Shown: one piece after another, positions 26,891-64,000 of the stretch
Layout: each line of letters begins with the position of its first letter
Numbering within the stretch: the stretch's first letter is position 1
Source: Actinomycetota bacterium
Lineage (GTDB): Bacteria > Actinomycetota > Thermoleophilia > Gaiellales > F1-60-MAGs149
Assembly (NCBI GenBank): GCA_009885805.1
Contig: VFJZ01000007.1
Coordinates: forward strand, 10,059-74,058
DNA length: 64,000 bases
Direction of reading: 5' to 3'
Program-made: the position numbers and the translations under genes
Notes under the pieces: generated by a model
Told to the model about the DNA's origin: nothing
The model's database searches: none
Seen by the model: the letters and a program-made list of their open reading frames with translations, nothing else

Positions 26891-26921
26891 CACTTTCAAC
26901 CAGTATGGATCGGAGGACCTC

Positions 26922-41674: not shown

Positions 41675-41815
41675 TAGGGACGTCCGCGCGAAGCCGTTCG
41701 ACCGCTCGACCGTCCGTTCTGCACTCCTGACCGTCAGCCGGCCTGCGGTCGAAGCGCTGACCGCATCGCCGTCACGCTGCGGCGACCGTCTGCTGCGCCG
41801 CCGCGGGCTTCGCGG

Positions 41816-41922
41816 GTGACCCGCCCGCCGCTTGCACTTGCTCCGGCAAGCCCTGCGCGACGGGCGAGCCTCCCGCTCGCTCCAGGAATCTCGACCACAA
41901 CGCCATTGCCGTGTCGAACCAC
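41816..41922. repeat. second, left-truncated copy of the same element (about 107 bp, roughly 90% identical by eye to 41567-41674)
   Basis: cgcccgccgcttgCacttgctccggcaagccctgcgcgacgggcg ... tcgaccacaacGccattGccgtgtcgaaccac aligns base for base with the first copy. No left inverted repeat is present. Confidence 0.65.
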
Positions 41923-41933
41923 CAGCACCGCGA

Positions 41934-41968
41934 GGTGGAACGAAGGAGCCTGGCCCCTTCGTTCCACC
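41934..41968 (+). terminator. 13-bp perfect stem / 9-nt loop hairpin
   Basis: ggtggaacgaagg (41934-41946) pairs with ccttcgttccacc (41956-41968). No U-tract. Confidence 0.45.
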
Positions 41969-42032
41969 GCCGCGAGGCGCGCCGCTACCACCACTCAAGC
42001 GCATGTCGATATGCGCCGAAGAGAGTACGGAT

Positions 42033-43112
42033 ATGACCCTGGCAGCACACATGCCGGTTCGGCTCGCTCTCGTCGGCGCGGGCTACTGGGGCGTGAAACT
42101 GGCGCGCAACATCGCCGACTCGCCGCACACCGAGCTGACGGCGATCTGCGACGCGGACGCCGTCCGGCTGGCGGCGGCCGTCCGGCGACACCCCGGCGCC
42201 GTCGCGGCCGGCCTGTTCGCCGACCTGCTGACCGAGGTCGACGTGGATGGCGTTGTCCTCGCGACGCCACCGTGCGATCACGCCTGGCAGGCCGAGGCGG
42301 CACTGCGGGCGGGGCTGCACGTGCTCGTCGAGAAGCCGCTCGCACTGTCGACAAAGGACGCCGATCGACTCTGCGCGCTCGCCGACAGCCAGCGGCGGAC
42401 GCTGATGACTGGACACACCTTCCTCTTCTCGGAACCGGTGCGGGTCCTGCGCGGCCTGATCGAGCGTGGCGAGCTCGGTCGCATCCTCTACCTGTCGGGG
42501 CAGCGCCTGCACCTGGGCGCGTTCCGACTCGACCACTCGGCGCTCTGGGACCTCGGTCCGCACGACGTCTCGATCATCTCGTACCTGCTCGGCGCGGCGC
42601 CGTTTGCCGTCGCATGCCGCCAGTTCTCGCTGATCGGCGCGCCCGTCGAGGACGTCGCCTTCGTGACGCTGGAGTACCCAGGCGGCGTCGTCGCCCAGTT
42701 CCAGAACTCGCGCCTCGATCCGCGGAAGGTTCGTCAGCTCACCGTCGTCGGCGACCGCAAGATGGCCGTCTACGACGACACCGACCCGGAGTGGCCGATC
42801 CGCGTGTACGACAAGGGCGTCGAGCGAGCCGAGCTGCCGATGAGCGTCGACGACGTCGAGGATGGCTTCGGCCAGTTCAAGTTCGAGGTCCGCAGCGGTG
42901 ACGTGTGGGCCCCGAAGGTCCGTGCGCGCGAACCGCTCCGCGAGGAGATCGACCACTTCGCGGCATGCGTGCTGAACGGCACGCGTCCGATCGCGGACGG
43001 CCCGGCCGGCCGCGACGTCGTGGCGGTGCTCGAGGCCGCCGAGCGATCGGCTGCCGACGGCGGGCGCCGTGTCGACGTGGAGGGCCGCCTTGTCGCGCAT
43101 ACGGCTGCTTGA
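42033..43112 (+). CDS. Gfo/Idh/MocA-family NAD-dependent sugar dehydrogenase
   Basis: VRLALVGAGYWG Rossmann motif and the EKPLALS motif. Start is ATG 42033 (42003 and 42051 are alternatives). Confidence 0.8.
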   Translation: MTLAAHMPVRLALVGAGYWGVKLARNIADSPHTELTAICDADAVRLAAAVRRHPGAVAAGLFADLLTEVDVDGVVLATPPCDHAWQAEAALRAGLHVLVEKPLALSTKDADRLCALADSQRRTLMTGHTFLFSEPVRVLRGLIERGELGRILYLSGQRLHLGAFRLDHSALWDLGPHDVSIISYLLGAAPFAVACRQFSLIGAPVEDVAFVTLEYPGGVVAQFQNSRLDPRKVRQLTVVGDRKMAVYDDTDPEWPIRVYDKGVERAELPMSVDDVEDGFGQFKFEVRSGDVWAPKVRAREPLREEIDHFAACVLNGTRPIADGPAGRDVVAVLEAAERSAADGGRRVDVEGRLVAHTAA

Positions 43113-44217
43113 TCTCGATCGTCAGCACCGCGACCTCGCCGCCGACCTCGACTCCGCGATCGCCGCCGTGATCGCGAGCGGGCGGTTCGTCGACGGACCG
43201 GCGATCGAGGCGTTCGAGCACGAGTTCGCGCTGTTCTGCATGGCGCGCCACTGTGTCGGCACCTCCAGCGGGACGTCGGCGCTGGCGCTCGCCCTGCGCG
43301 CCGCCGGCATCGGCGCCGGCGCCGAGGTGATCACGTCAGCGATGACGTTCATCGCGACGGCGGGCGCGATCGTCGAGGCTGGTGCGACGCCCGTCCTCGT
43401 CGACCCCGACCTCGACACCGGCCTGATCTCACCGGCGGCTGCGTCTGCCGCGATCTCCTCCAGGACGCGCGCGATCGTGCCGGTGCACCTCTGGGGGCAG
43501 CCGGTCGACCTGGCAGGCTTCAGGGCGGTCTGCGACCGGCATCGGCTGTTCCTGCTGGAAGACGCCTGCCAGGCGCACGGTGCCTGGGCGGGCGGCCTGC
43601 GAGCCGGGAGCGTCGGCGACGCCGCCGCCTTCTCGTTCTATCCGGGCAAGAACCTGGGCGCGATCGGCGACGCGGGCGGCGTGGTCACCTCCGACGGCGC
43701 CCTCGCAACGCGCCTGAGGGCGCTGCGCGATCATGGTCGAACCGGCCACACGGAGCACGCCATCGCCGGCACCAACGCCCGCATGGCGGCGATCCAGGCT
43801 GCAGTGCTGTCGGTCAAGTTGCCCCACGTCGAGCGCTGGAACGGCCGCCGACGGCAGACGGCGGCGCTGTACGACGCGGCGCTCGCCGACGTCGCCGGCG
43901 TGACGCCGATCGGTCGCCGCCCGGATGCCGTGTCGGCGAACCATCACTACGTCGTGCGGTGCGACGACCGGGCCGCGGTCGCCGATCACCTCGCGGCCCG
44001 ATCGATCGCGAGCGGTGTCCACTATCCGGTCCCGCTGCACCAGCACCCGGCGCTGGCGGGCGTCGTGGTTCCGGCGGGCCCGTTGCCGGTCGCCGAGCGT
44101 CTCGCCCGGGAGGTCCTGTCGGTGCCGGTCCACCAGGACCTCGCGCCCGCAGACGCCGAGCAGGTGATCGACGCGCTGGTCACGGCCGCGGCCGCCGCCG
44201 TGAAGCGGGCGGCGTGA
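43069..44217 (+). CDS. DegT/DnrJ/EryC1-family PLP-dependent sugar aminotransferase
   Basis: LDLDRQHRDL ..., FVDGPAIEAFEHEF, and FSFYPGKNLGAIGDAGG (PLP lysine context). The start may be TTG 43090. Confidence 0.85.
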   Translation: MSTWRAALSRIRLLDLDRQHRDLAADLDSAIAAVIASGRFVDGPAIEAFEHEFALFCMARHCVGTSSGTSALALALRAAGIGAGAEVITSAMTFIATAGAIVEAGATPVLVDPDLDTGLISPAAASAAISSRTRAIVPVHLWGQPVDLAGFRAVCDRHRLFLLEDACQAHGAWAGGLRAGSVGDAAAFSFYPGKNLGAIGDAGGVVTSDGALATRLRALRDHGRTGHTEHAIAGTNARMAAIQAAVLSVKLPHVERWNGRRRQTAALYDAALADVAGVTPIGRRPDAVSANHHYVVRCDDRAAVADHLAARSIASGVHYPVPLHQHPALAGVVVPAGPLPVAERLAREVLSVPVHQDLAPADAEQVIDALVTAAAAAVKRAA

Positions 44218-45122
44218 TGGACGAGCGGCTGGCGGGCGCTCCGGACGAGGCGGTGGTGCGTCGGCGATACCGGCAACTGCGGGCGATTCGACGCTTCGAG
44301 GAGCGTGTGCTGGCGGCGTTCGACGACGGCGTCCTGACCGGGACGACGCATGCCTGCGTCGGGCAGGAAGCCAACGCCGTCGCGATCGCCGAGGCGCTCG
44401 GTGACGACGATCACGTGTTCTCGAATCACCGCTGCCACGGCCACTACCTCGCGCGAACCTGGGACGTCGCCGGGCTCTGGGGCGAGCTGACCGGGCGACC
44501 CGACGGCGTCTGCGGCGGCGTCGGCGGCAGCCAGCACCTGTCTGCACCGGGCTTCCGCTCGAACGGCGTCCAGGGCGGTATCGTGCCGGCGGCGGCGGGC
44601 ATCGCGCTGTCGCGGGCCCTGAGCGGGCGCGACGGCCTGTCGGTCGTCTTCTGCGGCGACGGTACCTTCGGCGAGGGCGTGGTCTACGAGACGCTCAACA
44701 TCGCCGCCCTCTGGCGTCTACCGCTCCTGGTCGTGGTGGAGGACAACGGCTGGGCACAGTCGACGCCGGCCGCGCTGAACCGGGCGGGAGATCTGCCGGC
44801 GCGGATCGCGGCGTTCGGGATCCCGGTCGATGACGTCGACTCGACGGACGTCGAGATTCTCGCGACCGCGTCGGCCCGCGCCGTCGCGACGACGCGAGCA
44901 GGCGGTCCGGCAGCGCTGGTGATCCGGACCTACCGCCTCTGCCACCACTCGAAGAACGACGACGCCCGTCCCGCCGACGAGGTGTCGGCGCGCTGGGCGT
45001 TCGATCCGGTCGCGATCCAGGCCGGACGGCTCGACGGCGCGGCGCGCCTCCAGATCGACGGTGAGGTCGAGGCGGCGCTCGCCGAGACGATGGGCTCCGT
45101 ACCGGCAGCGGTGGCCGCATGA
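44217..45122 (+). CDS. thiamine-diphosphate-dependent 2-oxoacid dehydrogenase E1 alpha subunit
   Basis: ATG at 44217 overlaps the upstream stop. RAIRRFEERV ... HACVGQEA ... and the TPP motif CGDGTFGEGVVYETLNIAALWRLPLLVVVEDNGWA. Confidence 0.85.
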   Translation: MDERLAGAPDEAVVRRRYRQLRAIRRFEERVLAAFDDGVLTGTTHACVGQEANAVAIAEALGDDDHVFSNHRCHGHYLARTWDVAGLWGELTGRPDGVCGGVGGSQHLSAPGFRSNGVQGGIVPAAAGIALSRALSGRDGLSVVFCGDGTFGEGVVYETLNIAALWRLPLLVVVEDNGWAQSTPAALNRAGDLPARIAAFGIPVDDVDSTDVEILATASARAVATTRAGGPAALVIRTYRLCHHSKNDDARPADEVSARWAFDPVAIQAGRLDGAARLQIDGEVEAALAETMGSVPAAVAA

Positions 45123-46129
45123 TCTACGCGCGCGCCCTGGGAGCGGCCCTGCATGACTGCCTTGCCCGCGACCCGCGGGTCGTCCTGCTCGGCGAGGACA
45201 TCGCCGACCCGTACGGTGGCGCGTTCAAGGTGACGCGTGGGCTGTCGACCGCGTTCGGCGAGCGGGTGCGGACGACGCCGATCTCCGAGGCGGCAGTCGC
45301 CGGCATCGCCGCCGGGCTGGCACTGGACGGCATGCGACCGATCGCCGAGGTGATGTTCGGCGACTTCATCACGCTCTGCGCGGACCAGCTCGTCAACCAC
45401 ATCGCGAAGTACCGCGGGATGTACGGCGTCGACACGAGCTGCCCCGTCATCGTCCGCACGCCGATGGGTGGTGGCCGTGGCTACGGCCCGACCCACTCGC
45501 AGTCGCTGGAGAAGCATCTCCTCGGAGTACCCGGTCTGCAGGTCGTCGCTGCCTCGCCCTTCGAACACCCCGCGGCGATCTACGATCGCCTGCTCGCGCA
45601 GGACGATCCGGCCGTGGTGATCGAGCACAAGCTGCTGTACGGCCACGAGGCGATCGAGCCGGGAGCTAGCCGCGTCGGGCCGCTGCGGCTGCGCTACGAG
45701 GGCGGAGTCGACGGCTGGCCCGTTGCCGTCCTCGCCCCGGTGCCGCGTGAGCAGTGCCGGGTGACCGTGGTCGCGTACGGCTGGCAGGCAGAGGGGGCGC
45801 GCGCGGTCGTCGAGCGGCTCGCCGTCGACGACGAGCTGTTCTGCGAGCTCCTCTGCCCGCTGCGACTGTCGCCCCTCGATCTGACGGCCGTGATCGCGTC
45901 GGTTGCAGCGACGGGGGCGTTGGTCACGGTGGAGGAGGGGACGCGGGGCTTCGGCTTCGGCTCCGAGGTCGCCGCCGGTGTGGCACACGCGCTCCACGGA
46001 CGCCTGCGGCGACCGACAGTCCGCGTCTCTTCCGACGACGGCGTCGTCCCGGGAGCGCGTGCACTCGAGCGCGCGATGCTTGTCGCGGCGGCCGACGTCG
46101 TCGCTGCGGTCCGGGCGGTGGCGGCATGA
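45119..46129 (+). CDS. 2-oxoacid dehydrogenase E1 beta subunit (transketolase-like)
   Basis: 336 aa. LLGEDIADPYGGAFKVTRGL ... RTPISEAAVAGIAAG ... RTPMGGGRGYGPTHSQS. Confidence 0.85.
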   Translation: MIYARALGAALHDCLARDPRVVLLGEDIADPYGGAFKVTRGLSTAFGERVRTTPISEAAVAGIAAGLALDGMRPIAEVMFGDFITLCADQLVNHIAKYRGMYGVDTSCPVIVRTPMGGGRGYGPTHSQSLEKHLLGVPGLQVVAASPFEHPAAIYDRLLAQDDPAVVIEHKLLYGHEAIEPGASRVGPLRLRYEGGVDGWPVAVLAPVPREQCRVTVVAYGWQAEGARAVVERLAVDDELFCELLCPLRLSPLDLTAVIASVAATGALVTVEEGTRGFGFGSEVAAGVAHALHGRLRRPTVRVSSDDGVVPGARALERAMLVAAADVVAAVRAVAA

Positions 46130-47223
46130 TCGAGGTGCGCATCCCGGTCAGCGACGTCAACTCGCGAAGCGCCGTGATCGTGGCCTGGCACGCGGCCGAC
46201 CTGGCGGCGGTCGCGGCCGGCGACCTGATCTGCGAGGCGGAGACCACGAAGGCGGTGGTCGAGGTGCGCGCCCCCGTCGCGGGGATCCTGCGACGGCTGA
46301 CGACCACCGATGCACGCGTCGACCTCGCCGATCCGGTGGCGGTCGTGGCCCCAGATCTTGCCGCTGCCAGGGCCTTCAGCCCGGCGGCGGCCGACGCGAC
46401 GAGCGGGATCGGCGCGACCGCGACGCGCGCGGCGATCGCGCTCGCCGGGCAGCTCGGCGTCGATCTGGCCGGCATCGCCGCCGACGGGCTCGTCACGGCG
46501 GCGATGGTCGCCGAGGCCGCACGATCGGGGTCGCGCCCCGACCTCCTCGACCCGCTCGTCGCGCCGCCGGGAGCCCGGCGCGTCGTGATCGTCGGCGCCG
46601 GTCTCGGTGCAACGCAGGTGGCCGACATCCTCGACCACCACGACGATCTGGCGCCCATCGCCGTCCTCGATGACGATCCCGGCCGTTGGGGCGCCGAGGT
46701 CGCCGGCCTCCCCGTCGTCGGTGGTGTGCAGCGCGTCGCCGAGCTGAGCGGCGCCTTCGACGCGGCGATCATTGCCATCTCCAGCTCGGTCGGCGCACGC
46801 GCCGCGCTGCGCGCGCGCCTGCAGTCGGTCGGCCTGCCGCTCGTGAGCGCGATCGACCCGACCGTCCGCGTCGCCCGCGGAGCGACGGTCGGCGACGGTT
46901 GCGTGATCTGCGCGTTCTCGCATCTCGGCGTCGAGTCCCGCGTCGGTGCGAACACGTTTCTGTCGGCGTACACGTCGATCGACCACCACTCCGTCGTCGG
47001 CGCCGACTGCTCGGGCGGTCCCGGCTGTATGACGTCGGGCTGCGTCACGATCGGTGATCGCGTTCGGCTCGGCACTGGCATCTTCGTCCAGCCGCTCGTC
47101 ACGATCGGCGACGACGCGATGATCGCGTCGGGCGCGATCGTGACGGAGCACGTCCCGGCCGGGTATGCCGTCAAGACGCGGATCGCCGCCACCGTCATCG
47201 TCGCGCCGCGGAGGGCGGCGTGA
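46126..47223 (+). CDS. chimeric E2-like protein: lipoyl domain + PSBD-like segment + PglD/NeuD-type hexapeptide sugar N-acyltransferase
   Basis: Residues 1-76 form a lipoyl-type domain (GDLICEAETTKAVVEVRAPVAGIL; Lys42 codon at 46249-46251). Then ATRAAIALAGQLGVDLAGIAADGLVTAAMV, which resembles an E3/E1-binding domain. Then VVIVGAGLGATQVADIL ... VLDDDP ... SIDHHSVVG plus left-handed beta-helix repeats, in place of an E2 catalytic core. Confidence 0.8.
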   Translation: MIEVRIPVSDVNSRSAVIVAWHAADLAAVAAGDLICEAETTKAVVEVRAPVAGILRRLTTTDARVDLADPVAVVAPDLAAARAFSPAAADATSGIGATATRAAIALAGQLGVDLAGIAADGLVTAAMVAEAARSGSRPDLLDPLVAPPGARRVVIVGAGLGATQVADILDHHDDLAPIAVLDDDPGRWGAEVAGLPVVGGVQRVAELSGAFDAAIIAISSSVGARAALRARLQSVGLPLVSAIDPTVRVARGATVGDGCVICAFSHLGVESRVGANTFLSAYTSIDHHSVVGADCSGGPGCMTSGCVTIGDRVRLGTGIFVQPLVTIGDDAMIASGAIVTEHVPAGYAVKTRIAATVIVAPRRAA

Positions 47224-47936
47224 GCGAGTCGTCGCGCCTCGAGGACGTTGCGACCCGGTACTCGGGGCACGACGGGTTCGACGCAGTCCTCGTCCGCTAC
47301 TCCGTCGGCCGTCTCCTCCGGCAGATGCCGCGCGGTGCCTGCCTCGAACTGGGCCCGGCCGATGGCGCCTCGACTGCGATCCTGGCCCGCGAGTACGGCA
47401 CGATCGCCTGCGTCGAGGGATCGCCGACGCTCGCGGCCGCCCTCCGCGCCCGGCTCGGGGAGCGGGTCTCGGTCACCTGCTCGCTGTTCGAGGACTTTGC
47501 TTCCGCCGACCGTTTCGACGCGATCTACGCGATCCAGGTACTCGAGCACCTCGCCGATCCGGTTGGCGTCCTGCGCCGCGCCGGCGACTGGTTGGCTGCT
47601 GACGGACGGATCGCGATCTCCGTCCCCAATGCCGCCTCGCTGCATCGCCTGCTCGGGGTCGAGATGGGTCTGCTGGCGTCGGCCGACGGCCTGACGGCGC
47701 GCGACCACGACCTCGGCCACCGGCGCGTCTACACCAGGGCGCTCCTCGACGAGCACCTGTGCGAGGCCGGCCTCGATGTCCTCTGGCGCGGCTCGTCATT
47801 CCTCAAGCCGCTCTCCAACAGCCAACTCGAGGAACTGGCGGACGACCAGCTGTACGACGCCCTCGACCGTCTGGTGGACGGCTTTCCCGACCACGGCGCC
47901 GACCTCCTCGTCGTCGCACAACGAAGGAAGACATGA
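47220..47936 (+). CDS. class I SAM-dependent methyltransferase
   Basis: GTG start overlapping the previous stop. CLELGPADG motif I; FDAIYAIQVLEHL. Confidence 0.8.
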   Translation: MSESSRLEDVATRYSGHDGFDAVLVRYSVGRLLRQMPRGACLELGPADGASTAILAREYGTIACVEGSPTLAAALRARLGERVSVTCSLFEDFASADRFDAIYAIQVLEHLADPVGVLRRAGDWLAADGRIAISVPNAASLHRLLGVEMGLLASADGLTARDHDLGHRRVYTRALLDEHLCEAGLDVLWRGSSFLKPLSNSQLEELADDQLYDALDRLVDGFPDHGADLLVVAQRRKT

Positions 47937-49084
47937 CCGCAACGCGCATTCCCGTCGCCCGCCCGCCGATCGATCCGGCCGATCTCGAGGCTCTCCGTCC
48001 CGCCTTCGAGTCGGGCTGGATCACGATGGGTCCTGCGGTTCAGGAGTTCGAGGCCGCCGTCGCGAAGGTCGCGGGAGCGGACGCCGTCGCGACGACATCG
48101 GCGACCTCGGCCATGCATCTCGCGCTCCTCGCCTGGGGCATCGGGCCGGGCGACGAGGTGATCGTGCCGGCCTACACGTTCGTGGCATCGGCGCACGCCG
48201 TCGCCCAGACGGGCGCGACGCCGGTCTTCTGCGACGTCGATCCCGGCACCCTCAACATCGACGCCGCGTCTGCAGCGGCAGCCGTGACCGAGCGGACGCG
48301 GGCGATCATGGCCGTGCACCTGTTCGGGACGCCGGCGCCGATGGCTGCCCTCCGCGCTATCTGCCGCGAGCACGAGCTGTGGCTACTCGAGGATGCCGCC
48401 TGCGCGCTCGGTTCGACGCTCGACGGGACGCCCTGCGGCGCCCTCGGCGACGCCGCCGCGTTCTCGTTCCATCCCCGGAAGGTGATCACGACCGGTGAAG
48501 GTGGGATGCTGACCAGCGGCGACGCCGACCTGCTCACCCGCGCCCGCGCCCAGCGCAACCACGGTGCGGAGATGAGCGCGTTCGACCGGCATCAGCTCGG
48601 CATCGGCGTCTATCCGACCTTCGATCTGCTCGGCTTCAACTACCGCCTGACGGACATCCAGGCGCGACTGGGACTCGCGCAGATGGCGCGGCTCGACTCG
48701 ATCCTCGCCGAGCGTCGACGCCAGGCGGAGCACTACTTCGACGCGCTCGCTGGGGTCGACGGCCTCGGCTTGCCGGCGCTGCCGGCCGGCGCCACCAGCT
48801 GCTGGCAGAGCTTCGCCGTCCAGGTGCGCGGCCGGTCGCGCGCCGCCGTCCAGGCGCACCTCGCCGCCGGCGGTGTGTCGGCTGTCGAGTCGTGTCAGCT
48901 GGTCCCGGCGCTCGGCTACTACGCGACCCGCTCCGGTTACGTCGCCGGAGCGTTCCCGGCCGCCGAGGCGCTTGCCCGAAATGCACTGTCGATCCCGCTC
49001 TACGTCGGGCTCGCCGAGGCGGACCAGGAGCGAGTCGTCGCTCTCCTCACCGAGGCGATGGCGTCCGTGGCGGTGGCGGCATGA
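47933..49084 (+). CDS. DegT/DnrJ/EryC1-family sugar aminotransferase (second copy)
   Basis: ATG at 47933 (gaaggaag RBS, ATGA overlap). IPVARPPIDPADLEALRPAFESGWITMGP ... FSFHPRKVITTGEGGM. Confidence 0.85.
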   Translation: MTATRIPVARPPIDPADLEALRPAFESGWITMGPAVQEFEAAVAKVAGADAVATTSATSAMHLALLAWGIGPGDEVIVPAYTFVASAHAVAQTGATPVFCDVDPGTLNIDAASAAAAVTERTRAIMAVHLFGTPAPMAALRAICREHELWLLEDAACALGSTLDGTPCGALGDAAAFSFHPRKVITTGEGGMLTSGDADLLTRARAQRNHGAEMSAFDRHQLGIGVYPTFDLLGFNYRLTDIQARLGLAQMARLDSILAERRRQAEHYFDALAGVDGLGLPALPAGATSCWQSFAVQVRGRSRAAVQAHLAAGGVSAVESCQLVPALGYYATRSGYVAGAFPAAEALARNALSIPLYVGLAEADQERVVALLTEAMASVAVAA

Positions 49085-50019
49085 AGGTCGCGATCTGCGG
49101 AGCGCTCGGGTTCGTCGGCACGCGCGTCGCGCGCGACCTGGCCGCGGCCGGGCACGAGCCGCTCCTGCTCGACGTGGCCCCGCGCTCGCCGCACCCGCTC
49201 GCCGAGACGCTCCTGCGGCGGCACGAGTTCCGTCGCTGCGACCTCACCGACCCGATGTCGACGCGAATCGCCCTGGCCGGTGCCGACGCCGTCTTCCACG
49301 CCGCCGCGCTCGGCGCCAAGGTCGAGCGTGACCGCCCGTGGGAGACGGCGCATCTCAACCTGATGGGCGCCGTCAACGTCCTCGAGTCGGCTCGCCGCGA
49401 GCAGGTCTCCCGTTTCGTGTTCGCGTCGTCGGCGGTCGTCTACGGTGACCGTTTCGGAACGACGGCCGTCGCCGAGAGCGACCCGCGCCCGCCCGCGACG
49501 ACGATTTACGCCGCGACCAAGGCGGCAGGCGAGGACCTCGTTGCCGCCTACGGCGCCCAGTTCGGTCTCAGCGGCCTCTGCCTTCGCTTCATGAACGTCT
49601 ACGGGTTCCAGCCGGCGACGATGGTGCAGCGTGAGTTGACCGCGCGGGTGCTCGAGCGCGTCGAGGCCGGCGAGCCGCCCCTGATCTTCGGCGACGGCTC
49701 AGCAGCATTCGACTTCGTCCACGTCGACGACGTAGCGCGGGCGGTCTGCTCCGCGCTGACCGCCGACGCGACGGGGACCCTCAACGTGGGCACGGGGTCG
49801 GCGACGACCGTGCGCGACCTGGTCGAACTCGTGCTCCGCGAGACGGGCTCGGGGCTCGCTCCGGAGTACCGGCCGGGAGGCGCGTCGCCGACGACGCTGC
49901 GCGCCGACACCGCTGCCGCCGACGCTGCCCTCGGCTTCAGGGCGGCGATCACGTTGCCGGAGGGCATCCGGCAGACGATCGCCGAGTTCCGCAACGCGGC
50001 GGAGCCGTGCGCCGCCTGA
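49081..50019 (+). CDS. NAD-dependent nucleotide-sugar epimerase/dehydratase (extended SDR)
   Basis: MKVAICGALGFVGTRVARDL and YAATK catalytic motif. ATGA overlap. Confidence 0.85.
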   Translation: MKVAICGALGFVGTRVARDLAAAGHEPLLLDVAPRSPHPLAETLLRRHEFRRCDLTDPMSTRIALAGADAVFHAAALGAKVERDRPWETAHLNLMGAVNVLESARREQVSRFVFASSAVVYGDRFGTTAVAESDPRPPATTIYAATKAAGEDLVAAYGAQFGLSGLCLRFMNVYGFQPATMVQRELTARVLERVEAGEPPLIFGDGSAAFDFVHVDDVARAVCSALTADATGTLNVGTGSATTVRDLVELVLRETGSGLAPEYRPGGASPTTLRADTAAADAALGFRAAITLPEGIRQTIAEFRNAAEPCAA

Positions 50020-50020
50020 C

Positions 50021-56436: not shown

Positions 56437-56437
56437 C

Positions 56438-57157
56438 TCAGGCGGCCTGCGGCAGTGCGCGGGCCTGGCTCGCAGCGTCCGCGAAGAGCAGTGCGAGAAT
56501 CGTCTGCAGCTCGTTGTCACGGTCGTTCGATCGCGTCAACGTGAGGTCGCCGTGCTCGAATCCGGCCGTGCCGAGGAACGTCGCCATCTCCGCGATCGTC
56601 CACTCGCGCACGTGGCAGGGATTCGGTGGCGGGCCGCTGTGATCGGCACCCCAGGTGAGCGTGCGTTCGGGTGTCGAGAGGACGACCGCCGCGCAGTGCC
56701 CGAGCGCAGCGGCGAGCTTCGCCAGCAGCAACTCGGGGCGGCGGAGGTGCTCGATGACGTCGGAGCAGACGACGACGGCGCCGGCGAGCTGCTCGTGCGT
56801 CAGTGGCAGCGGCTCGTCCCGATCGAGGTCGTGCTCGAGCCACGTCCCGAACGGGTAGCGCGAGCGGACGACATCGAGGTTCGCGCCGAAGTCGATGCCG
56901 ACGATCGCGAAACCCGGGTGCAGCGCCACGAGCTTGACGCCGTCACCCGAGCCGATGTCGACGATGCGCGTCGCGCCGAGTCGCGTCGCGATTCGCGCGG
57001 CGTCGTGGTACACGTCGGGTTGCCAGGTGATGTCCTGCCGAGCGGCCGAGTCGTCGTGGTAGTAGTCGGGCTCGTCGCGGTGGACGTAGCCGTCGCGGAT
57101 GCCGTAGGCGTCGGGCACGGCCCATCCATCGGCAGGCTCGGCCGTTGCCTTGACCAC
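56438..57157 (-). CDS. class I SAM-dependent methyltransferase
   Basis: RIVDIGSGDGVKL motif I; VVCSDVIEHL. Start chosen at GTG 57157 (uncertain). The rest of the 498-aa ORF is Arg-rich junk antisense to the next gene. Confidence 0.7.
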   Translation of the reverse strand: MVKATAEPADGWAVPDAYGIRDGYVHRDEPDYYHDDSAARQDITWQPDVYHDAARIATRLGATRIVDIGSGDGVKLVALHPGFAIVGIDFGANLDVVRSRYPFGTWLEHDLDRDEPLPLTHEQLAGAVVVCSDVIEHLRRPELLLAKLAAALGHCAAVVLSTPERTLTWGADHSGPPPNPCHVREWTIAEMATFLGTAGFEHGDLTLTRSNDRDNELQTILALLFADAASQARALPQAA

Positions 57158-57177
57158 GTGCTGCGCCGCGGTCGCCG

Positions 57178-58488
57178 CTACAGCGACGGGCAGGCGGTGA
57201 GCTGCGGGAGCAGCGGGAGACCGGCGACGCGGACCGCGCGGCGGACGACGCCGACGGGCAGGCGCTCGCCGACGGCGAGTTCGATCGCGACGGCCCGCTC
57301 GGTCAGCCGATGACCATCGAGGGCAGCGACGACCCGATCGGCGAGATCGACCGCGAAACCCCGCGGGAGCGCGACGACGATCGAGGCGGCGGCATCTGCC
57401 GACATCGCCGCGGCGAGTTTGCGGACGAGGTCGTGGTCGGTCGTGAGCGCGTCCGCGCGGACGACGTACGGGCGCGGCCCGCCCTCGTCGCCCGGGTCGT
57501 CCGGCCGTCGGGCGAGAGCCTCCAGTGCCGCGAGCGACTCGCCGTCGCGGGGATCGCAGGCGATGGCCGCCGCGAGCGCGGCCGCTGTCGCGGCGTCGGC
57601 GCCCTCCGCGATCGCCGCTGCCGCGAGCGCGCGGTGGCCGCTTGCGGCGATGCGTTCGTCGCCCGTGACTGCCGCCTCCTCGCCCAACTGGAGCCGAACC
57701 TCCTCCAGGTCGCGCAGGAGAACGGCCGTGCCGGCGGCGATCTCGGCCGGCTCGAGGCTCGTCAGATCGAGCGCCTGCAGGAACCAGCGGCGGAACGCGG
57801 CGTTGCGAGCCGTCAGGCGCGACCGGCCGACGGCGCCCAGATTCATGTTCGCGGCATGCCGCCGGTAGCGATGCAGCGGCTCGCGGACCACGGCGACCTC
57901 CGTCACGCCGGCGACTGCGAGCGCGATGAACCAATCCTGCGCCGGTGCTGCCGCTTGCACCGGCTCGAAGCGTCCCCGCAGGGCGGCCCGCACCATCAGC
58001 GTCGCCGGGATGAAGTTGTGCTGGATGAGCGAGCCGAGGACGCGGCCCTCCAGCGGGGTGATGCCCATCGCCGCGAAGAACGACGGCGCCGTACGGTGAC
58101 CGTCCGCGTCCATCAGTTCGAGATCGCTGTAGACGAGCCCCGTGCCCGGTCGATCGGCGAGGACCTCTGCCTGGCGGCGCACCTTGTCTGGCCGCAGGAC
58201 GTCGTCGGCGTCGAGAAAGGTGATCAGATCGCCCGTCGCCAGCTCCAGTCCGGTTCCCACCGCTGCGCAGAGGCCGCCGTTCAGACGCTGCACGGTCACG
58301 ACGCGGTCACGGTAGGTGTCGATCACGGCCGCCGTCCCGTCGGTGGAGCCGTCGTCGACAACGACGATCTCGAGGTCGCCGGCCGGCCACTCCTGCGCCA
58401 GCGCACTGTCCAGCGCCGCCGCCAGGAAGGGCGCCGCGTTGAAGGCCGGGACGATGATCGAGACGCGTGGCGCCACCGGCCAGTGCAT
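57178..58488 (-). CDS. glycosyltransferase family 2 protein with a C-terminal extension
   Basis: ATG at 58488 (MHWPVAPRVSIIVPAFN ... VVVDDGSTDGT ... FLDADD). Confidence 0.75.
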   Translation of the reverse strand: MHWPVAPRVSIIVPAFNAAPFLAAALDSALAQEWPAGDLEIVVVDDGSTDGTAAVIDTYRDRVVTVQRLNGGLCAAVGTGLELATGDLITFLDADDVLRPDKVRRQAEVLADRPGTGLVYSDLELMDADGHRTAPSFFAAMGITPLEGRVLGSLIQHNFIPATLMVRAALRGRFEPVQAAAPAQDWFIALAVAGVTEVAVVREPLHRYRRHAANMNLGAVGRSRLTARNAAFRRWFLQALDLTSLEPAEIAAGTAVLLRDLEEVRLQLGEEAAVTGDERIAASGHRALAAAAIAEGADAATAAALAAAIACDPRDGESLAALEALARRPDDPGDEGGPRPYVVRADALTTDHDLVRKLAAAMSADAAASIVVALPRGFAVDLADRVVAALDGHRLTERAVAIELAVGERLPVGVVRRAVRVAGLPLLPQLTACPSL

Positions 58489-58544
58489 CGGTTCCGACGG
58501 GAGGTCGCTTGAGGCCGGCACCGACGGCGCCGATACCGGGACGG

Positions 58545-61500
58545 ATGCAGCCGCCCGCGCCACGTGTCACCCTGGCGATCGCGACCTTCAACGGCGAGCG
58601 GTTCCTGCACGAGGCGCTGGCGAGCGCCCTCGCGCAGAGCTACACCGACTACGAGGTCCTGGTCGTCGACGACGGATCCACGGACGGGACGGCCGCGGTC
58701 CTCGATACGTTCGGTGACGACCGCCTCCGGCGGCTGCGAAACGACGTCAACCTCGGCATCCCGGCGACCTACAACCGGATCGTCGCGGAGGCGCGCGGCG
58801 AACTGATTGCGCGCCTCGGCCACGACGACGTCGCCCGTCCCGACTGGTTGGAGCGTGCGGTGGCGGTGTTCGACCGCTTCCCGAACACCGCGGTCGCGTA
58901 CGGCGATGCCATCGTCGTCGACGCCAACGGCCGTCAGACCGACCGGTGGCCGACGGGCGGCCTCGCACGAACGCGACCGCTGGACGTCCTCGTCCGTCGC
59001 ACCGGCGCGCTGATCGACCCCGCGACGGTCGTGCATCGCCGCGTCTACGCCGCGATCGGGGGCTACGCGGCCGACCTCCCGTCGACGTGCGACTTCGATC
59101 TCTGGCTGCGGGCGGCCCGCCACTTCGCCTTCCGGCACGTTCCCGGCGGGCCCGTGATCGCGTTTCGGCGTCACGGCGGCAACTTCTCCGACGAGCGTCA
59201 TCACGCCCGCGAGATCGCCGAGCTCGAGATCTGCCTGGGCCGCCTCGTCGACGAGACGCCGCTGGCCGAGCTCGTTCCCGAGATCGACTGGGCCGTCCTC
59301 GATACCGCGACGGCCGAGCGGGCGGCCCTGCACGTGCTGGCTGCCGCGCTCGATCGGCGCGGCGTCCCGATCCTCGCGGAGCGCGTCCGGCTGCGGTCGG
59401 TCGCAGCGGCACCCGCACCGTTGCCCGCACGGCGAGGCAGCGTGCTGTTCACGATGTTCGGCTTCGACGATCCCGGCGGCGGCACGTTGCTGCCCCGGTT
59501 GGCTGCGAAGTCCCTCGCCGCCCGGGGCTTCGACGTCACGGTCTTCCACGCCGCCGTCGGGGCGCTGGAGGGCGCGCCCGCGTACGCGATCGGCGAGTGG
59601 GAGTCCGACGGGGTTCGCCTGATCGGCGTCCATAACAGGCCGAGCGCCCTGCTCGACCCCGGCAACCCGGGCCGTGAGGTGGACGATCCCGCGATCGCCG
59701 ACGCCTTCGGGGCGGTGCTCGACCGCCTGCGCCCGGACGTCGTGCACTTCCACAACCTCCACAACCTCGGTCTGTCGCTCGTCGACGAGACGGCCTCCCG
59801 CGGCATCCGCTCCTACTTCACGCCGCACAACTTCTGGCTCGCCTGCGCCCGCAACCACTTCGTCCGTGAGGGCGGCGTCCTCTGCGAGGGCGGCGCCGAC
59901 GGCGGGCGCGTGTGCGCACCATGTACCGGCACGCGCGACGGCGAGGGCTATGCCCGGCGCCAGCTCGAGATGCGGGAGCGGATCAGCTGGCGCGTCGAGG
60001 CGATCCTCCCGGTCACCGAGACCGTTGCGACGGTGCTCGCCGGGGCCGGCTTCGACCGCTCGTCGCTCCACGTGCAGCGCCTCGCCGCGCCGGAGGCGGC
60101 GCGCCTGTGGGCGGAGACCGGCTCGAAGCGGCCGCGCGGCCGGGTCGGCGAGGTGCTGACGGTCGGCTTCATCGGGTCGCTCGCCGGCCACAAGGGCGCC
60201 GACCTGCTCGTCGCGGCGGCGCAGGAGGTCGCGGCGCCGCTGCGCGTCGAGTTGCATGGCGACATCCCTGCTCTCCGCGACCGCGACCGCCTGCTCTGCG
60301 CCGACAGCCGTGGCGTCGTCGACATCCACGGCCCGTACGCGCCGGCCAGCCTCCCCCGGATCCTGGCGGGCATCGACGTCGCCGTGCTGCCCTCGCTCGT
60401 CTGGGAGACGGCCGGGCTGACGGTGCTCGAGTGCCTGGCAGCGGGCGTCCCGGTCGTCGTCGCGAGGATGGGCGGGCTGATCGAGGGCGTCCGTGACGGC
60501 GTCGACGGGCTCGTCGTCGACGGGCGCTCGCCAGCGGCCGTGGCCGCTGCGCTGCAGCGGCTCGCGACCGAGCCTGATCTGCTCGAAGCCCTGCAGACGG
60601 CGATCGAACCGCCCCGACTGTTCGCGGACTACGTGGACGAGCTCGACCGGCTGTACACCACGGGCGCGCTGCCGGTGGTCGTTCCGTGCCCGCTTGAAAT
60701 CGCCGTCCGCTGGACCGGCGACCAGGCGGCCGTCTCCAGCCTGGCGACCATCAACCGCGAGGTGACCGGGCGACTGGGGCCGGGATTCGTCGTCGAGCGC
60801 AACGGCCTCGATGGTCCGTCGGGCGACCCGCCGCTGCCGCGGCCGGCCGACATCGAGGTGCGACATCAGTGGCCGCCGGACTTCACCTCGCGCGGCGTCG
60901 GGCGGCTCGCGCTGATTCAGCCCTGGGAGTTCGGATCCCTGCCGCGCGACTGGCAGGCGCCACTGACGGGCGCCGTCGACGAGGTCTGGGTGCCGAGTGA
61001 CTACGTCGCGCAGATGTACCGCGACGCAGGCGTCGCCGGGGACCGCGTTCACGTCGTCCCGAACGCCGTCGACCTCGACCGCTTCCGGCCCGAGGGAGCG
61101 CGACTCGAGTTGCCGCCAGCGGGGCTGCGTCTGCTGTTCGTCGGCGGCACGATCTACCGGAAGGGCATCGACCTGCTGATCGAGGCCTTCGGCGAGGCGT
61201 TCGGCCCGGGCGACGACGTGCAGCTGGTCGTGAAGGACATCGGCGGCGCCAGCTTCTACCAGGGCATCAACCTCGGCGAGCGGATCCGCTCGCTGGAGGC
61301 GTCCGGGCGCGTCGTCTACATCGATCGCGACCTCGACGACGACGAGATCGCGGCCCTGTACCGGGCGTGCGATGTGCTCGTCCATCCGTATCGCGGCGAG
61401 GGGTTCGCGATGCCGGTCCTCGAGGCGATGGCGTGCGGGCTCCCGGTGGTCGTGACCGCCGGCGGGCCGACCGACGAGTTCGTCCCCGACAGCGCCTGCT

Positions 61501-62171
61501 GGCGTGTGGCGTCGGTGCGGCGACCGTTCACGCGTGTCGGCATGGAGTGCGTCGATCCCCCCTGGATGCTGGAGCCCGACCCGACGTCGCTGGTCGGGGC
61601 GCTGCGGCTGGCGACGGCGGCTGCCGCCGAACGTGAGGCCCGTGGCGCGGCTGGCCAGCGGGCGGCGCAGGCGTACGGCTGGGATGCGATCGCGGCCATG
61701 TACGGTGAGCGGCTGCGGTCGCTCGCCCTGCGGGCGCCGCGATTCGCGGCCGCGCCGATCGAGCCGCTGGTGCTGCCGGGGCGGCGCGGCCTGAACGTCC
61801 TCGCGACACCGGCATGGCGTGGCACCGATCGGCTCGACGCGCTGCTCCGGGGCTGGGCCGACGCGTTCGGCGGGGGCGAGGACGCCATTCTCTATCTGCT
61901 TGCCGATCCGGCGGTGGACGGGACGCCGGAGCGCTGGGAAGAGCACGTCCTCGCCGCAGCCGGGCGCGCCGGCGTCGACCTCGGCGAGATGGCGGACATC
62001 TCGGTGCTCGACCACGAGGTGCACGGCGACGACCTACGGCGCATTCACGCCGCGATGGACGCGTACGTGCCGCTGCACGATGCCTGCGGCGGGCACCGCC
62101 GCCTCGCGCGGTGCGTCGCCGGCACCGACGCCGCCGCCCTGCGGTCGCTGTCCACACGCCGAGCCGCCTGA
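58545..62171 (+). CDS. giant three-module glycosyltransferase (GT2 + GT4 + GT4)
   Basis: ATG at 58545. RVTLAIATFNGERF ... LVVDDGSTDGT (GT2). Then FIGSLAGHKG ... WETAGLTVLECLAAGVPVV (GT4). Then LLFVGGTIYRKG ... GEGFAMPVLEAMACGLPVV (GT4). Confidence 0.8.
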   Translation: MQPPAPRVTLAIATFNGERFLHEALASALAQSYTDYEVLVVDDGSTDGTAAVLDTFGDDRLRRLRNDVNLGIPATYNRIVAEARGELIARLGHDDVARPDWLERAVAVFDRFPNTAVAYGDAIVVDANGRQTDRWPTGGLARTRPLDVLVRRTGALIDPATVVHRRVYAAIGGYAADLPSTCDFDLWLRAARHFAFRHVPGGPVIAFRRHGGNFSDERHHAREIAELEICLGRLVDETPLAELVPEIDWAVLDTATAERAALHVLAAALDRRGVPILAERVRLRSVAAAPAPLPARRGSVLFTMFGFDDPGGGTLLPRLAAKSLAARGFDVTVFHAAVGALEGAPAYAIGEWESDGVRLIGVHNRPSALLDPGNPGREVDDPAIADAFGAVLDRLRPDVVHFHNLHNLGLSLVDETASRGIRSYFTPHNFWLACARNHFVREGGVLCEGGADGGRVCAPCTGTRDGEGYARRQLEMRERISWRVEAILPVTETVATVLAGAGFDRSSLHVQRLAAPEAARLWAETGSKRPRGRVGEVLTVGFIGSLAGHKGADLLVAAAQEVAAPLRVELHGDIPALRDRDRLLCADSRGVVDIHGPYAPASLPRILAGIDVAVLPSLVWETAGLTVLECLAAGVPVVVARMGGLIEGVRDGVDGLVVDGRSPAAVAAALQRLATEPDLLEALQTAIEPPRLFADYVDELDRLYTTGALPVVVPCPLEIAVRWTGDQAAVSSLATINREVTGRLGPGFVVERNGLDGPSGDPPLPRPADIEVRHQWPPDFTSRGVGRLALIQPWEFGSLPRDWQAPLTGAVDEVWVPSDYVAQMYRDAGVAGDRVHVVPNAVDLDRFRPEGARLELPPAGLRLLFVGGTIYRKGIDLLIEAFGEAFGPGDDVQLVVKDIGGASFYQGINLGERIRSLEASGRVVYIDRDLDDDEIAALYRACDVLVHPYRGEGFAMPVLEAMACGLPVVVTAGGPTDEFVPDSACWRVASVRRPFTRVGMECVDPPWMLEPDPTSLVGALRLATAAAAEREARGAAGQRAAQAYGWDAIAAMYGERLRSLALRAPRFAAAPIEPLVLPGRRGLNVLATPAWRGTDRLDALLRGWADAFGGGEDAILYLLADPAVDGTPERWEEHVLAAAGRAGVDLGEMADISVLDHEVHGDDLRRIHAAMDAYVPLHDACGGHRRLARCVAGTDAAALRSLSTRRAA

Positions 62172-62226
62172 GCGGACCGCCGTATCCGCTCAAGTCGGTA
62201 CGCACCTGCGCCGACAGTGGTACGAC

Positions 62227-64000
62227 ATGGCCCTGAAGATCGTCCGAGCGACCGATGACGACCGGCTCGCCAATCCCCTGCGCCTCTGGTACAGCGGTCG
62301 TCGTGCCGAGGCACTGGCCGTGCTCGCCGCGCCCGACGCCGCCCAGTTCGCCGACGAGGCGCCGAAACTGCTGGCGCTCGCGCTCGCCGACGACCCGTCG
62401 CACGCACCCGCCATCGGCACCGCGCTCGTCGCCTGGGAGGACGAGATCGCCGCCTACCGCGTGCTGAAGGGCCTGATCGAGTCGCTGATCGACGAGATCG
62501 GCCCGCACGGCGTCGCGCGCTGGTCCGCGCGTGGCGTGGCGCTGCTCGCCCTCGTCCGGCCGTGGTTCGAGCGCCATCCGGCCGAGCCGGTGCTCCTGAA
62601 CTACGCCGGTGTTGCCCTGTACGGACTCAACGAGGCCTCGCTCGCGCTGCGCCTGTTCGGCGCCGCCGGCGCGATCGACGCGGCCCTCGAGAACCTCGCC
62701 GGCAACACGGCGGCGGCGAAGGAGCGCGTGCGGCGGCCGATCAAGTTGACGCTCGGCCCGCGCGAGCGGTCGACGCTGACGGCGCTCCGCCCCTTCTTCA
62801 AGGCGCTCCCGGCGCGCGCGGCGGCGGCGCGCGACGAGGTCAGGATCTCGCTCTGCATGATCGTCAAGGACGAGGAGGAGATGCTGCCCGACTGCCTCGC
62901 CTCCTGTGCCGCGGGCGTCGACGAGATGGTCATTGTCGACACCGGCTCGAGCGACCGCACCGTCGAGATCGCGGAGTCGTTCGGGGCGCGCGTGCTCCAC
63001 TTCCCCTGGAACGGCTCGTTCTCGGATGCCCGCAATCACGGGCTCGACGAGGCGACCGGGACGCACATCCTCTGGCTGGACGCCGACGAGCGGCTCGAGG
63101 ACGGCGACGCCGAGGCGCTGCGCGACCTGGCCGCGCAGCCGTATCGCGAGGCGCACTGGCTGGTCGAGACGAATTTCACCGGCCAGGAGGAGGTCGGCAC
63201 GGCCGCGAACCACCTGGCGCTGCGCCTGTGGCGCAGCCGGGCTCCGTTCCGGTTCAGCGGCGCAATTCACGAGCAGATCCGCATCTCGATGCCGATCGAC
63301 CTGCCGGAGCGGTTCGCGATCTCCAGGCTCCGGATCCGGCACTACGGGTATCTGAAGAGCCGCATCGAGGAGCGCGACAAGCACGCCCGCAACCTGGAAC
63401 TGCTCCTGCAGGAGCTGCAGCGGCAGCCGCGGAACGCGTTCACGCACTTCAATCTCGGCACCGAGTACGTGTCGATGGACGACATGCCGAAGGCGCTCGA
63501 GCACCTGTCGCTGTCGTACGAACTGATCCAGGCGGAGCAGGGCTGGCACGAGATCGCCTACACCTCGCTGCTCGCGACGCGCCTGATCGGCGTTCGCCGC
63601 CGCAGCGGCGATGTCGCCGGAGCCGACCTGCTCGCAGAGGAACTGCTCCAGCTCTTCCCGACCTTCACCGACCTCGTCTTCGAGCGCGGACTGGCCGCTC
63701 GCGAGCGCGGCGACAACGACGGCGCCGTGGCCCTGTTCGAGCGTTGCCTGCAGATGGGCGACGCGCCGGCCCGGTTCGCTGGCATGGTCGGCCGCGGCTC
63801 GTTCCTCGCACTGGCGGCCCTGGCGAGTCTCGAACTGGCGCGCGGCGACCAGGCGTCGGCGCTCGGTCGGCTCCAGGAGAGCCTCGACCGGTATCCCGCC
63901 TACCTGCCAGCCGGCCTCGACCTCGCCGATGCGCTGCTCGCCGTACCCGACGCCGATCCCGAGCAGGTGCTCGAACGGCTCGACCGCGGCGGCAACGACA
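62227..64000 (+). CDS. GT2 glycosyltransferase flanked by helical/TPR-like regions (3' end outside the window)
   Basis: Not in the supplied ORF track because it has no stop in the window. My own translation from ATG 62227 stays open to base 64000. ISLCMIVKDEEEMLPDCL ... VIVDTGSSDRT ... WLDADE (GT2), followed by TPR-like helical repeats (AFTHFNLGTEYVSMDDMPKALEHL ...). Confidence 0.75.
   Translation, partial: MALKIVRATDDDRLANPLRLWYSGRRAEALAVLAAPDAAQFADEAPKLLALALADDPSHAPAIGTALVAWEDEIAAYRVLKGLIESLIDEIGPHGVARWSARGVALLALVRPWFERHPAEPVLLNYAGVALYGLNEASLALRLFGAAGAIDAALENLAGNTAAAKERVRRPIKLTLGPRERSTLTALRPFFKALPARAAAARDEVRISLCMIVKDEEEMLPDCLASCAAGVDEMVIVDTGSSDRTVEIAESFGARVLHFPWNGSFSDARNHGLDEATGTHILWLDADERLEDGDAEALRDLAAQPYREAHWLVETNFTGQEEVGTAANHLALRLWRSRAPFRFSGAIHEQIRISMPIDLPERFAISRLRIRHYGYLKSRIEERDKHARNLELLLQELQRQPRNAFTHFNLGTEYVSMDDMPKALEHLSLSYELIQAEQGWHEIAYTSLLATRLIGVRRRSGDVAGADLLAEELLQLFPTFTDLVFERGLAARERGDNDGAVALFERCLQMGDAPARFAGMVGRGSFLALAALASLELARGDQASALGRLQESLDRYPAYLPAGLDLADALLAVPDADPEQVLERLDRGGND

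Follow-up and report, generated by a model that had tools for sequence, protein, structure and literature searches.

A Probable Flagellin Glycosylation Island with an Unusual Candidate Acylation Module in the Flagellar Locus of a Gaiellales Bacterium

A block of sixteen genes (G1 to G16, positions 42033–64000) in the flagellar and chemotaxis locus of a Gaiellales bacterium (class Thermoleophilia) is probably a variable island for the O-glycosylation of flagellin. The block forms the last part of a 64,000-nucleotide stretch of contig VFJZ01000007.1, the whole of which is referred to below as the window, and comprises nine sugar-modifying enzymes (G1–G9), six glycosyltransferase (GT) proteins with 9–10 GT domains, and one extra methyltransferase (G13). 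Flagellin is the likely target of the glycan and is favoured because of the homology of G16 to GmaR, a flagellin glycosyltransferase of Listeria, the synteny found across the class, the presence of fliS and fliD in closer relatives, and the absence of export machinery. A preliminary description of this sequence had proposed a glycan island directed at flagellin, which the present analysis makes the best candidate (GmaR homology, orthologues in the flagellar loci of 29 among 31 genomes, fliS–fliD in relatives). However, it had considered a cell-surface polymer equally possible, and the two readings can no longer be placed on the same level, since the island encodes neither a membrane protein nor a flippase, a polymerase, an exporter, or a priming transferase.

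The island is of a known general kind, encountered here in a lineage of abundant and rarely cultured soil bacteria; no relevant study of flagellin glycosylation in Thermoleophilia or Actinobacteria was found in the literature. Moreover, it exposes an unstudied three-gene cassette, widespread in Actinobacteria, that encodes an E1α subunit, an E1β subunit, and a fusion of lipoyl, peripheral subunit-binding (PSBD), and PglD-like domains.

A GmaR-Like Glycosyltransferase in a Conserved Flagellar Context

The last gene of the island is the following:

62227–64000, plus strand, running off the window: G16, GmaR-like protein with a family 2 glycosyltransferase (GT2) domain and tetratricopeptide repeats (TPR) by Pfam, candidate flagellin O-glycosyltransferase

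At full length (protein P0121), G16 has 840 amino acids (aa), of which helical repeats cover about 440 aa behind the GT domain; Pfam places TPR_1, TPR_2, and TPR_12 C-terminal to the GT2 domain, and several TPR families are precomputed for the full-length protein. Its top match among the sequences of the Protein Data Bank (PDB) is the GT domain of GmaR (E = 1.1e-35, 40% identity over 196 aa), and the matches ranking next, SunS (a peptide glycosyltransferase) and a related entry of the Glyco_trans_2-like kind, follow far behind. G16 and GmaR share a homologous GT2 domain succeeded by TPR or helical repeats, and the GmaR gene of Listeria lies inside a flagellar and chemotaxis cluster, as G16 does. 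However, GmaR is shorter (637 aa) and lacks the extra N-terminal region of about 200 aa seen in G16. Furthermore, GmaR adds a single N-acetylglucosamine (GlcNAc), whereas G16 is accompanied by 8–9 further GT domains and a sugar cassette. Named homologues of G16 come from metagenome-assembled genomes (MAGs) of Gaiellaceae, Gaiellales, and Thermoleophilia.

GmaR is a bifunctional protein with a GT-then-TPR layout that acts both as flagellin O-GlcNAc transferase and as anti-repressor of MogR (PMC9638930). By analogy, and in view of the helical repeats that follow its GT domain, G16 could be mainly a regulator, with the neighbouring GTs acting on something else. This is highly improbable, since the motifs VDTGSxD and LDADE (DxD-type) are invariant in 18 orthologues, which argues that the enzyme activity is under selection; in addition, nothing resembling MogR came to notice among the genes of the window, although no systematic search for one was made. 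As regards the repeats themselves, the TPR domain of Caulobacter FlmG binds flagellins (PMC7591256).

As a separate observation on the wider family, six tandem flagellin-like genes are located a few kilobases downstream of a distant homologue of the G16 GT2 domain in a Bacteroidota MAG (L082, 15863–22202).

A comparison of synteny, as suggested in the preliminary description, was run across Thermoleophilia with one genome per species and returned 31 full-length G16 orthologues. Flagellar genes lie within 10 kb of the orthologue in 29 of the 31, and both exceptions are on truncated contigs. The typical order in the class is flgE-flgG-flgN-flgK-flgL-fliW-csrA-(flagellin of ~270 aa) ... GT2-TPR-fliD-fliS, and in three closer relatives (68–75% identity) small open reading frames (ORFs), fliS, and fliD are found within about 3 kb after the G16 orthologue, in varying order. 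In the window, Pfam identifies flgE-like, flgG, flgN, flgK, flgL, fliW, csrA, cheW, cheB, cheR, cheA, cheC, cheD, fliM, fliY, and cheY upstream of the island, the last three of which had already been recognized. The GmaR-type transferase appears to be a fixed, core part of the flagellar locus across Thermoleophilia, and this class-wide occurrence makes the idea testable in cultured relatives, e.g., Conexibacter or Baekduia.

The upstream GTs of the relatives are partly shared with the island (GT2-GT4, GT2, and GT4-GT4 proteins), whereas their sugar genes differ: instead of G1–G9, which no other flagellar locus included in the comparison contains, they carry an NTP_transferase, or a short-chain dehydrogenase/reductase (SDR) together with a GT10, or methyltransferase sets. 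This combination of partly shared GTs and different sugar genes points to a glycosylation island whose content varies while its place in the flagellar locus is fixed.

The kind of proteins encoded in the island bears on the acceptor as well. None of the 16 proteins shows a convincing membrane segment (maximum Kyte–Doolittle mean over 19 residues, 1.94), and Pfam detects no domain of a priming transferase, flippase (Wzx), polymerase (Wzy), or ABC/Wzm/Wzt exporter between 42033 and 64000; the islands of the relatives are likewise devoid of priming transferase, flippase, polymerase, and exporter. It might still be supposed that the island serves in its entirety to make a polysaccharide of the cell envelope or capsule and that its motility neighbourhood is incidental, an explanation that accommodates the 9–10 GT domains, as in polysaccharide loci, the label "glycosyltransferase involved in cell wall biosynthesis" given to homologues by the Joint Genome Institute (JGI), and the equal rank assigned to it in the earlier work. 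However, it is very unlikely, given that the window offers no priming phosphoglycosyltransferase, flippase, polymerase, chain-length regulator, ABC exporter, or transmembrane segment, that G16 is a GmaR homologue, and that its orthologues reside within flagellar loci in nearly all of the genomes compared.

Layout and Composition of the Island

Genes were called by the phase of G+C content at third codon positions (GC3) in this window of about 71% G+C, and were then checked against Pfam. G1–G12 are twelve plus-strand genes extending from 42033 to 56436, whose junctions include nine ATGA/GTGA overlaps of 4 nt, one overlap of 8 nt, and one gap of 1 nt, while G1 and G2 overlap by 23–44 nt according to the start chosen. 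GC3 phase, Pfam matches, and junction overlaps confirm the tight packing and the gene content described before, with a correction to the order of the genes, as the E1/E2-like module (G3–G5) sits between the first DegT aminotransferase (G2) and the methyltransferase G6. The further methyltransferase and GT2 protein reported after G12 exist as well (G13 and G14). However, they belong to the minus strand, to which they are assigned because the GC3 phase and the Pfam matches support the minus-strand ORFs only; the plus-strand ORFs opposite them have the wrong GC3 phase and zero Pfam matches. The previous estimate of about ten GT-like domains agrees with the 9–10 counted here.

Between 42000 and 62000, the G+C content (0.72–0.75) is slightly higher than in the flagellar and chemotaxis genes (0.67–0.71), and the AT skew is persistently negative (−0.04 to −0.17). 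This composition fits a history different from that of the neighbouring genes.

The Acyl Module

Three consecutive genes of the plus-strand run constitute the cassette:

44214–45122, plus strand: G3, E1α-like thiamine-diphosphate (ThDP) subunit (Pfam E1_dh, 8e-45)
45119–46129, plus strand: G4, E1β-like subunit (Transket_pyr and Transketolase_C; NCBIfam match to pyruvate dehydrogenase (PDH) E1β below the cut-off)
46126–47223, plus strand: G5, lipoyl/PSBD-like/PglD_N/left-handed β-helix fusion (Pfam Biotin_lipoyl, PglD_N, and Hexapep)

It is tentatively proposed that G3, G4, and G5 N-acylate an amino sugar via a lipoyl arm and not via coenzyme A (CoA). The module might be regarded as a miniature 2-oxo acid dehydrogenase in which a PglD-type sugar N-acyltransferase replaces the E2 core, and in which the lipoyl arm would hand the acyl group straight to a nucleotide amino sugar, with no CoA thioester in between. 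The acyl group transferred in this way could be one that lacks a CoA pool in the cell, e.g., glycolyl.

The sequence of G3 matches the NCBIfam model of PDH E1α below its cut-off and keeps the motifs GDG...N, a ThDP motif, and YR..HHS, both read here according to established knowledge. In G5, the lipoyl lysine is K42 within ETTKA, and residues E39, T40, K42, H287, and H288, along with the PSBD-like helices, are invariant in an alignment of 31 homologues. Using the AlphaFold2 (AF2) model of G5 (mean predicted local distance difference test (pLDDT) score of 77), Foldseek relates the N-terminus to lipoyl domains (3crk_C, TM 0.78) and the C-terminus to PerB, PglB-ATD, VioB, PglD, WeeI, and Pcryo_0637. 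Neither Pfam nor Foldseek detects a 2-oxoacid_dh core (chloramphenicol acetyltransferase (CAT)-like) in G5, which has a PglD-like β-helix in its place, and no E3 gene is found in the island by Pfam. The module resembles PDH, branched-chain 2-oxo acid dehydrogenase (BCKDH), and acetoin dehydrogenase in its heterodimeric ThDP-type E1α/E1β pair and in its E-T-x-K-A lipoyl lysine followed by a PSBD-like segment, and it departs from them in the replacement of the CAT-like core of E2 by a sugar N-acyltransferase and in the lack of a local E3. Moreover, the acceptor of G5 would be an amino sugar, not CoA, as in the 2-oxo acid dehydrogenase complexes, or a carrier protein, such as that loaded by the E1/E2-like system QncN/QncL. 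More than 400 proteins belong to the G5 family at about 50% identity, and their annotation does not go beyond "biotin/lipoyl-containing protein" or "acetyltransferase-like"; nothing relevant on a lipoyl- or E1-dependent sugar N-acyltransferase was found in the literature. The pair Pcryo_0637/0638, considered as a precedent for a triamino sugar, was dropped, as its published product is a diacetamido sugar.

The surroundings of the cassette were compared in 80 metagenome loci. E1α and E1β are directly upstream of the fusion in all 27 loci with enough sequence, and a Gfo or DegT homologue occurs in 14 of the 22 whose additional flank measures 4 kb or more; none of the 80 has flagellar genes beside the cassette. 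This constant gene order bears on a different role of the E1 pair, namely adding a two-carbon C-branch that stems from pyruvate onto a keto sugar (e.g., the 3-keto product of G1), in the manner of Plm8/Plm9, AviB1/B2, and YerE. E1α/E1β homologues of deoxysugar pathways do attach two-carbon side chains from pyruvate (PMC4802897), and the keto-sugar-forming dehydrogenase G1 is adjacent. Nevertheless, such a role is unlikely here, since the pair always precedes the lipoyl-lysine/N-acyltransferase fusion and C-branching needs no lipoyl partner; indeed, the paper on Plm8/Plm9 mentions no lipoyl component (PMC4802897).

In Micromonospora, the neighbours of the cassette are Gfo, SDR, two DegT proteins, a plain PglD-like enzyme, a GT4, and an ABC-2 transporter (Micromonospora globbae CP109307.1, L001, 8127–21125), and in Catellatospora sichuanensis (L003, 2671–11125) it is accompanied only by Gfo, DegT, GT4, and polysaccharide deacetylases. 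Neither genus is known to be motile, and these contexts suggest that the same unusual N-acyl amino sugar is part of a glycopolymer of the cell wall. From its contexts elsewhere, mostly beside Gfo or DegT genes and never beside flagellar ones among the metagenome loci, G3–G5 is therefore regarded as a general amino-sugar acylation module that was recruited by the island. If the proposal on the lipoyl arm holds true, CoA-independent N-acylation of nucleotide sugars would represent a new logic in bacterial glycan diversification, and the cassette would be a possible tool for glyco-engineering.

An E1α/E1β pair beside the GT2-TPR gene of another locus (L007) was also considered. It is a full-length conventional pair on the other strand, without a lipoyl/left-handed β-helix partner, and its adjacency is probably coincidental; similar E1α/E1β matches lie beside the GT2-TPR gene of L021.

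Enzymes of Amino-Sugar Synthesis

The remaining sugar-modifying enzymes and the additional methyltransferase are encoded as follows:

42033–43112, plus strand: G1, Gfo/Idh/MocA oxidoreductase (Pfam), candidate nucleoside-diphosphate (NDP)-sugar C3 dehydrogenase (WbpB/GnnA-like)
43090–44217, plus strand: G2, DegT aminotransferase of the C3 type (Pfam, 367 bits)
47220–47936, plus strand: G6, S-adenosylmethionine (SAM)-dependent methyltransferase (Methyltransf_23/12/11; without NCBIfam match)
47933–49084, plus strand: G7, DegT aminotransferase of the C4 type (solved relatives perosamine synthetase, 7e-70, and ArnB-type enzymes)
49081–50019, plus strand: G8, extended SDR of the GalE-like 4-epimerase type (motif FASSAVVYG...YAATK)
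50021–50941, plus strand: G9, sugar N-formyltransferase candidate (Formyl_trans_N and C)
56438–57118, minus strand: G13, methyltransferase convergent with G12 (GC3 phase; Methyltransf_23)

The top NCBIfam model for G1 is UDP-GlcNAc 3-dehydrogenase, with 134 bits against a cut-off of 450, and its PDB relatives are generic. The nearest solved relatives of G2 are 2oga (1.5e-96), which we take to be DesV, QdtB, and WbpE, a resemblance to C3-type aminotransferases that holds at the family level and with which the WbpB/WbpE-like logic previously put forward for the pair G1 and G2 is in agreement. The WbpB/WbpE/WbpD (WlbA/C/B) and GnnA/GnnB systems equally combine a Gfo/Idh/MocA protein, a C3-type DegT aminotransferase, and a left-handed β-helix N-acyltransferase. 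However, Pfam finds no equivalents of the UDP-GlcNAc 6-dehydrogenase WbpA and the 2-epimerase WbpI in the island, and G5 is of the PglD/PerB class with PglD_N, not of the WbpD class, besides being joined to a lipoyl domain and supplied by an E1α/E1β pair.

A second likeness is with ArnB/ArnA and WbkC. The proteins closest to G7 are perosamine synthetase and ArnB, and the nearest solved relative of G9 is the formyltransferase domain of ArnA (1.5e-31), followed by Fmt and GDP-perosamine formyltransferase, which supports the earlier designation of G9 as an Fmt-like enzyme. G8 had been labelled an epimerase/dehydratase, of which only the epimerase part is maintained: its nearest solved relatives are UDP-glucose 4-epimerases and MoeE5, its S-S-A...YxxxK signature is of the GalE type, and its sequence shows no motif of a dehydratase or a decarboxylase (including T-S-E). 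Unlike ArnA, with its T-S-E decarboxylase, G8 is GalE-like and is not an obvious 4,6-dehydratase either; equivalents of ArnC, ArnD, and ArnT are also absent from the window.

Since none of the island enzymes reaches an NCBIfam equivalog cut-off, the exact sugar cannot be named. Gene adjacency suggests two modules, G1-G2-G3-G4-G5 for a 3-N-acyl group and G7-G8-G9 for a 4-N-formyl group; an arrangement with all modifications on one sugar and another with two separate amino sugars fit equally well.

Glycosyltransferases G10 to G15

Five GT proteins precede G16 in the island:

50934–52763, plus strand: G10, near-orphan protein of 609 aa (no Pfam match at E ≤ 0.001)
52760–54919, plus strand: G11, two-domain GT2 and GT4 protein (Pfam)
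54916–56436, plus strand: G12, GT2 with a weak second GT2-like N-terminal domain (Pfam; homologue in L004)
57178–58521, minus strand: G14, GT2 divergent from G15 (GC3 phase; Glycos_transf_2, 2e-30)
58545–62171, plus strand: G15, giant GT2-GT4-GT4 protein (Pfam; alternative starts 58467 and 58509)

Three GT proteins had been described in the plus-strand run; G11 and G12 are such by their Pfam domains, and G10 is recognized as one only by remote, transitive homology. Its N-terminal ~320 aa remotely resemble Glyco_trans_1_2 (CgeB-type GT-B), with a hint of 12.7 bits, and its homologues are scarce (a single one among 5.8 billion clusters, and, at E ≤ 1e-30, 14 representatives among 1.84 billion). 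As seven of ten relatives match PF13524 (Glyco_trans_1_2), G10 is probably a divergent GT-B enzyme, with a C-terminal half without assigned homology. The AF2 model of G10, built from an alignment of two sequences (pLDDT 49), was too poor for a fold search, and transitive Pfam matching was used instead. GT2-GT4 proteins similar to G11 are present in the islands of relatives, and in Gaiellales relatives the GT2-TPR gene is immediately preceded by GT4-GT4 homologues of G15.

Proposed Pathway and Acceptor

The pathway outlined here is a prediction in each catalytic step, in the pairing of the enzymes, in the order of GT action, and in the acceptor. The product of the soluble proteins G1–G9 would be an unusual nucleotide-activated amino sugar, or two of them. 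G1 and G2 would install a 3-amino group, while G3/G4 would decarboxylate a 2-oxo acid and reductively acylate the lipoyl-lysine of G5 itself rather than CoA. The β-helix domain of G5 would then pass the acyl group to the 3-amine, and a housekeeping E3 would re-oxidise the lipoyl arm. The action of G7 and G9 would give a 4-formamido group, G8 would epimerise the sugar, and G6 and G13 would methylate it. In the cytoplasm, G16 would bind flagellin via its TPR region and attach the first sugar to Ser/Thr residues, followed by extension of the glycan by G10–G12, G14, and G15 before the flagellar type III apparatus exports the protein. If this scheme is right, a lipoyl-arm cassette decorates a multi-sugar glycan put on flagellin by a GmaR-type enzyme.

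Strain-variable blocks of soluble sugar enzymes and GTs in flagellar loci are known from Pseudomonas, Campylobacter, Aeromonas, Clostridium, and Caulobacter (FlmG, Maf, and FgtA types), which, like the island described here, combine a protein-binding (TPR) GT initiator with the absence of lipid-carrier and export machinery. However, the initiator in the present case is of the GT-A/GT2 GmaR type and not a GT-B FlmG or a Maf protein and, in contrast to these systems, no nonulosonic-acid genes (pseudaminic or legionaminic acid, Pse/Leg) are found.

The locus could also be composite, with G15–G16 and perhaps G11–G12 serving flagellin, and G1–G10 being an inserted cassette for another acceptor (a glycopolymer of the cell wall, or a surface protein such as one of the S-layer), with export or ligation genes located elsewhere. 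Such an origin is consistent with the restriction of G1–G9 to this flagellar locus among those examined, with the non-flagellar, cell-wall-like contexts of the Micromonospora and Catellatospora cassettes (ABC-2 transporter, GT4, deacetylases), with the lack of flagellar genes in the metagenome loci of the acyl module, and with the G+C content and AT skew of the island, slightly unlike those of the flagellar genes. Nevertheless, it is considered rather unlikely: G1–G12 are translationally coupled and run straight into GT genes common to the flagellar islands of relatives, the island spans 22 kb without any membrane or export component, and flagellin islands normally recruit generic sugar cassettes.

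Several points weigh against flagellin as the acceptor or against the pathway as drawn. The window contains no flagellin gene, only FlgL, and the right edge of the island (fliS/fliD) is deduced from relatives. Distant GT2-TPR homologues from Bacillota are mostly non-flagellar, so that the GT2-TPR architecture alone is not diagnostic. The acyl cassette has no flagellar neighbours in any of the 80 metagenome loci, and its context with an ABC-2 transporter in Micromonospora looks like that of a cell-wall polymer. Furthermore, acyltransferases of the PglD/PerB class are known to act on C4 amines, whereas G5 is paired here with a C3 amine only on the basis of gene adjacency, and the 4-keto intermediate for the C4-type enzyme G7 is left unexplained, since G8 is not of the dehydratase type. 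Finally, given the repeat-filled gap that separates the island from cheY and the absence of a sigma-28-like promoter (TAAA-N13-17-CCGAT) upstream of G1, co-regulation with motility is hypothetical.

The cheY–G1 Gap and the Flagellar Genes Upstream

The confirmed fliM-fliY-cheY genes are followed, before the island, by an intergenic region:

41519–42032, no strand assigned: cheY–G1 gap of 514 nt with repeats and a hairpin

An element of about 117 nt occurs in this gap as two direct copies (41561–41677 and 41810–41925; 83–93% identical), the first bracketed by a 30-nt inverted repeat (41515–41544/41648–41677) and the second followed by a 17-bp hairpin (41934–41968). No further copy exists elsewhere in the window, an Rfam scan of the gap returned no family and only a chance miRNA-like match, and promoter and terminator consensus scans of the same region found none. 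The element could be related to miniature inverted-repeat transposable elements (MITE) or repetitive extragenic palindromes (REP), or be an unknown structured leader. The gap suggests that the transcription unit of the island is separate from that of fliM-fliY-cheY. The single sigma-28/sigma-D-like match in the window (TAAA-N17-CCGAT, 32885–32910) lies about 45 nt upstream of cheW and is weak, as about 10% of shuffled sequences also give one match; GCCGATAA-like words are not enriched.

Directly after csrA and before the che operon, a 152-aa Cys-rich, zinc-ribbon-like ORF without Pfam family (32429–32887) occupies the slot where related Thermoleophilia encode the ~270-aa flagellin. Just upstream of the flagellar block, there are a PAS-GGDEF-HD protein (19289–20797), an FHA/zinc-ribbon protein (21914–22351), and, between the two, an RsiG-like protein (21411–21911), RsiG being an anti-sigma factor of WhiG that binds cyclic di-GMP (c-di-GMP); these genes (19289–22351) could constitute a c-di-GMP control module for motility. 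With regard to the hook gene, the FlgE-like ORF (25731–27653) was called with 640 aa, its rod/hook domains begin only at residue ~404, and an overlapping minus-strand ORF (25758–26600) has a better GC3; the true start of the hook gene is probably near 26900, and the 5' part of the call may contain a separate minus-strand gene.

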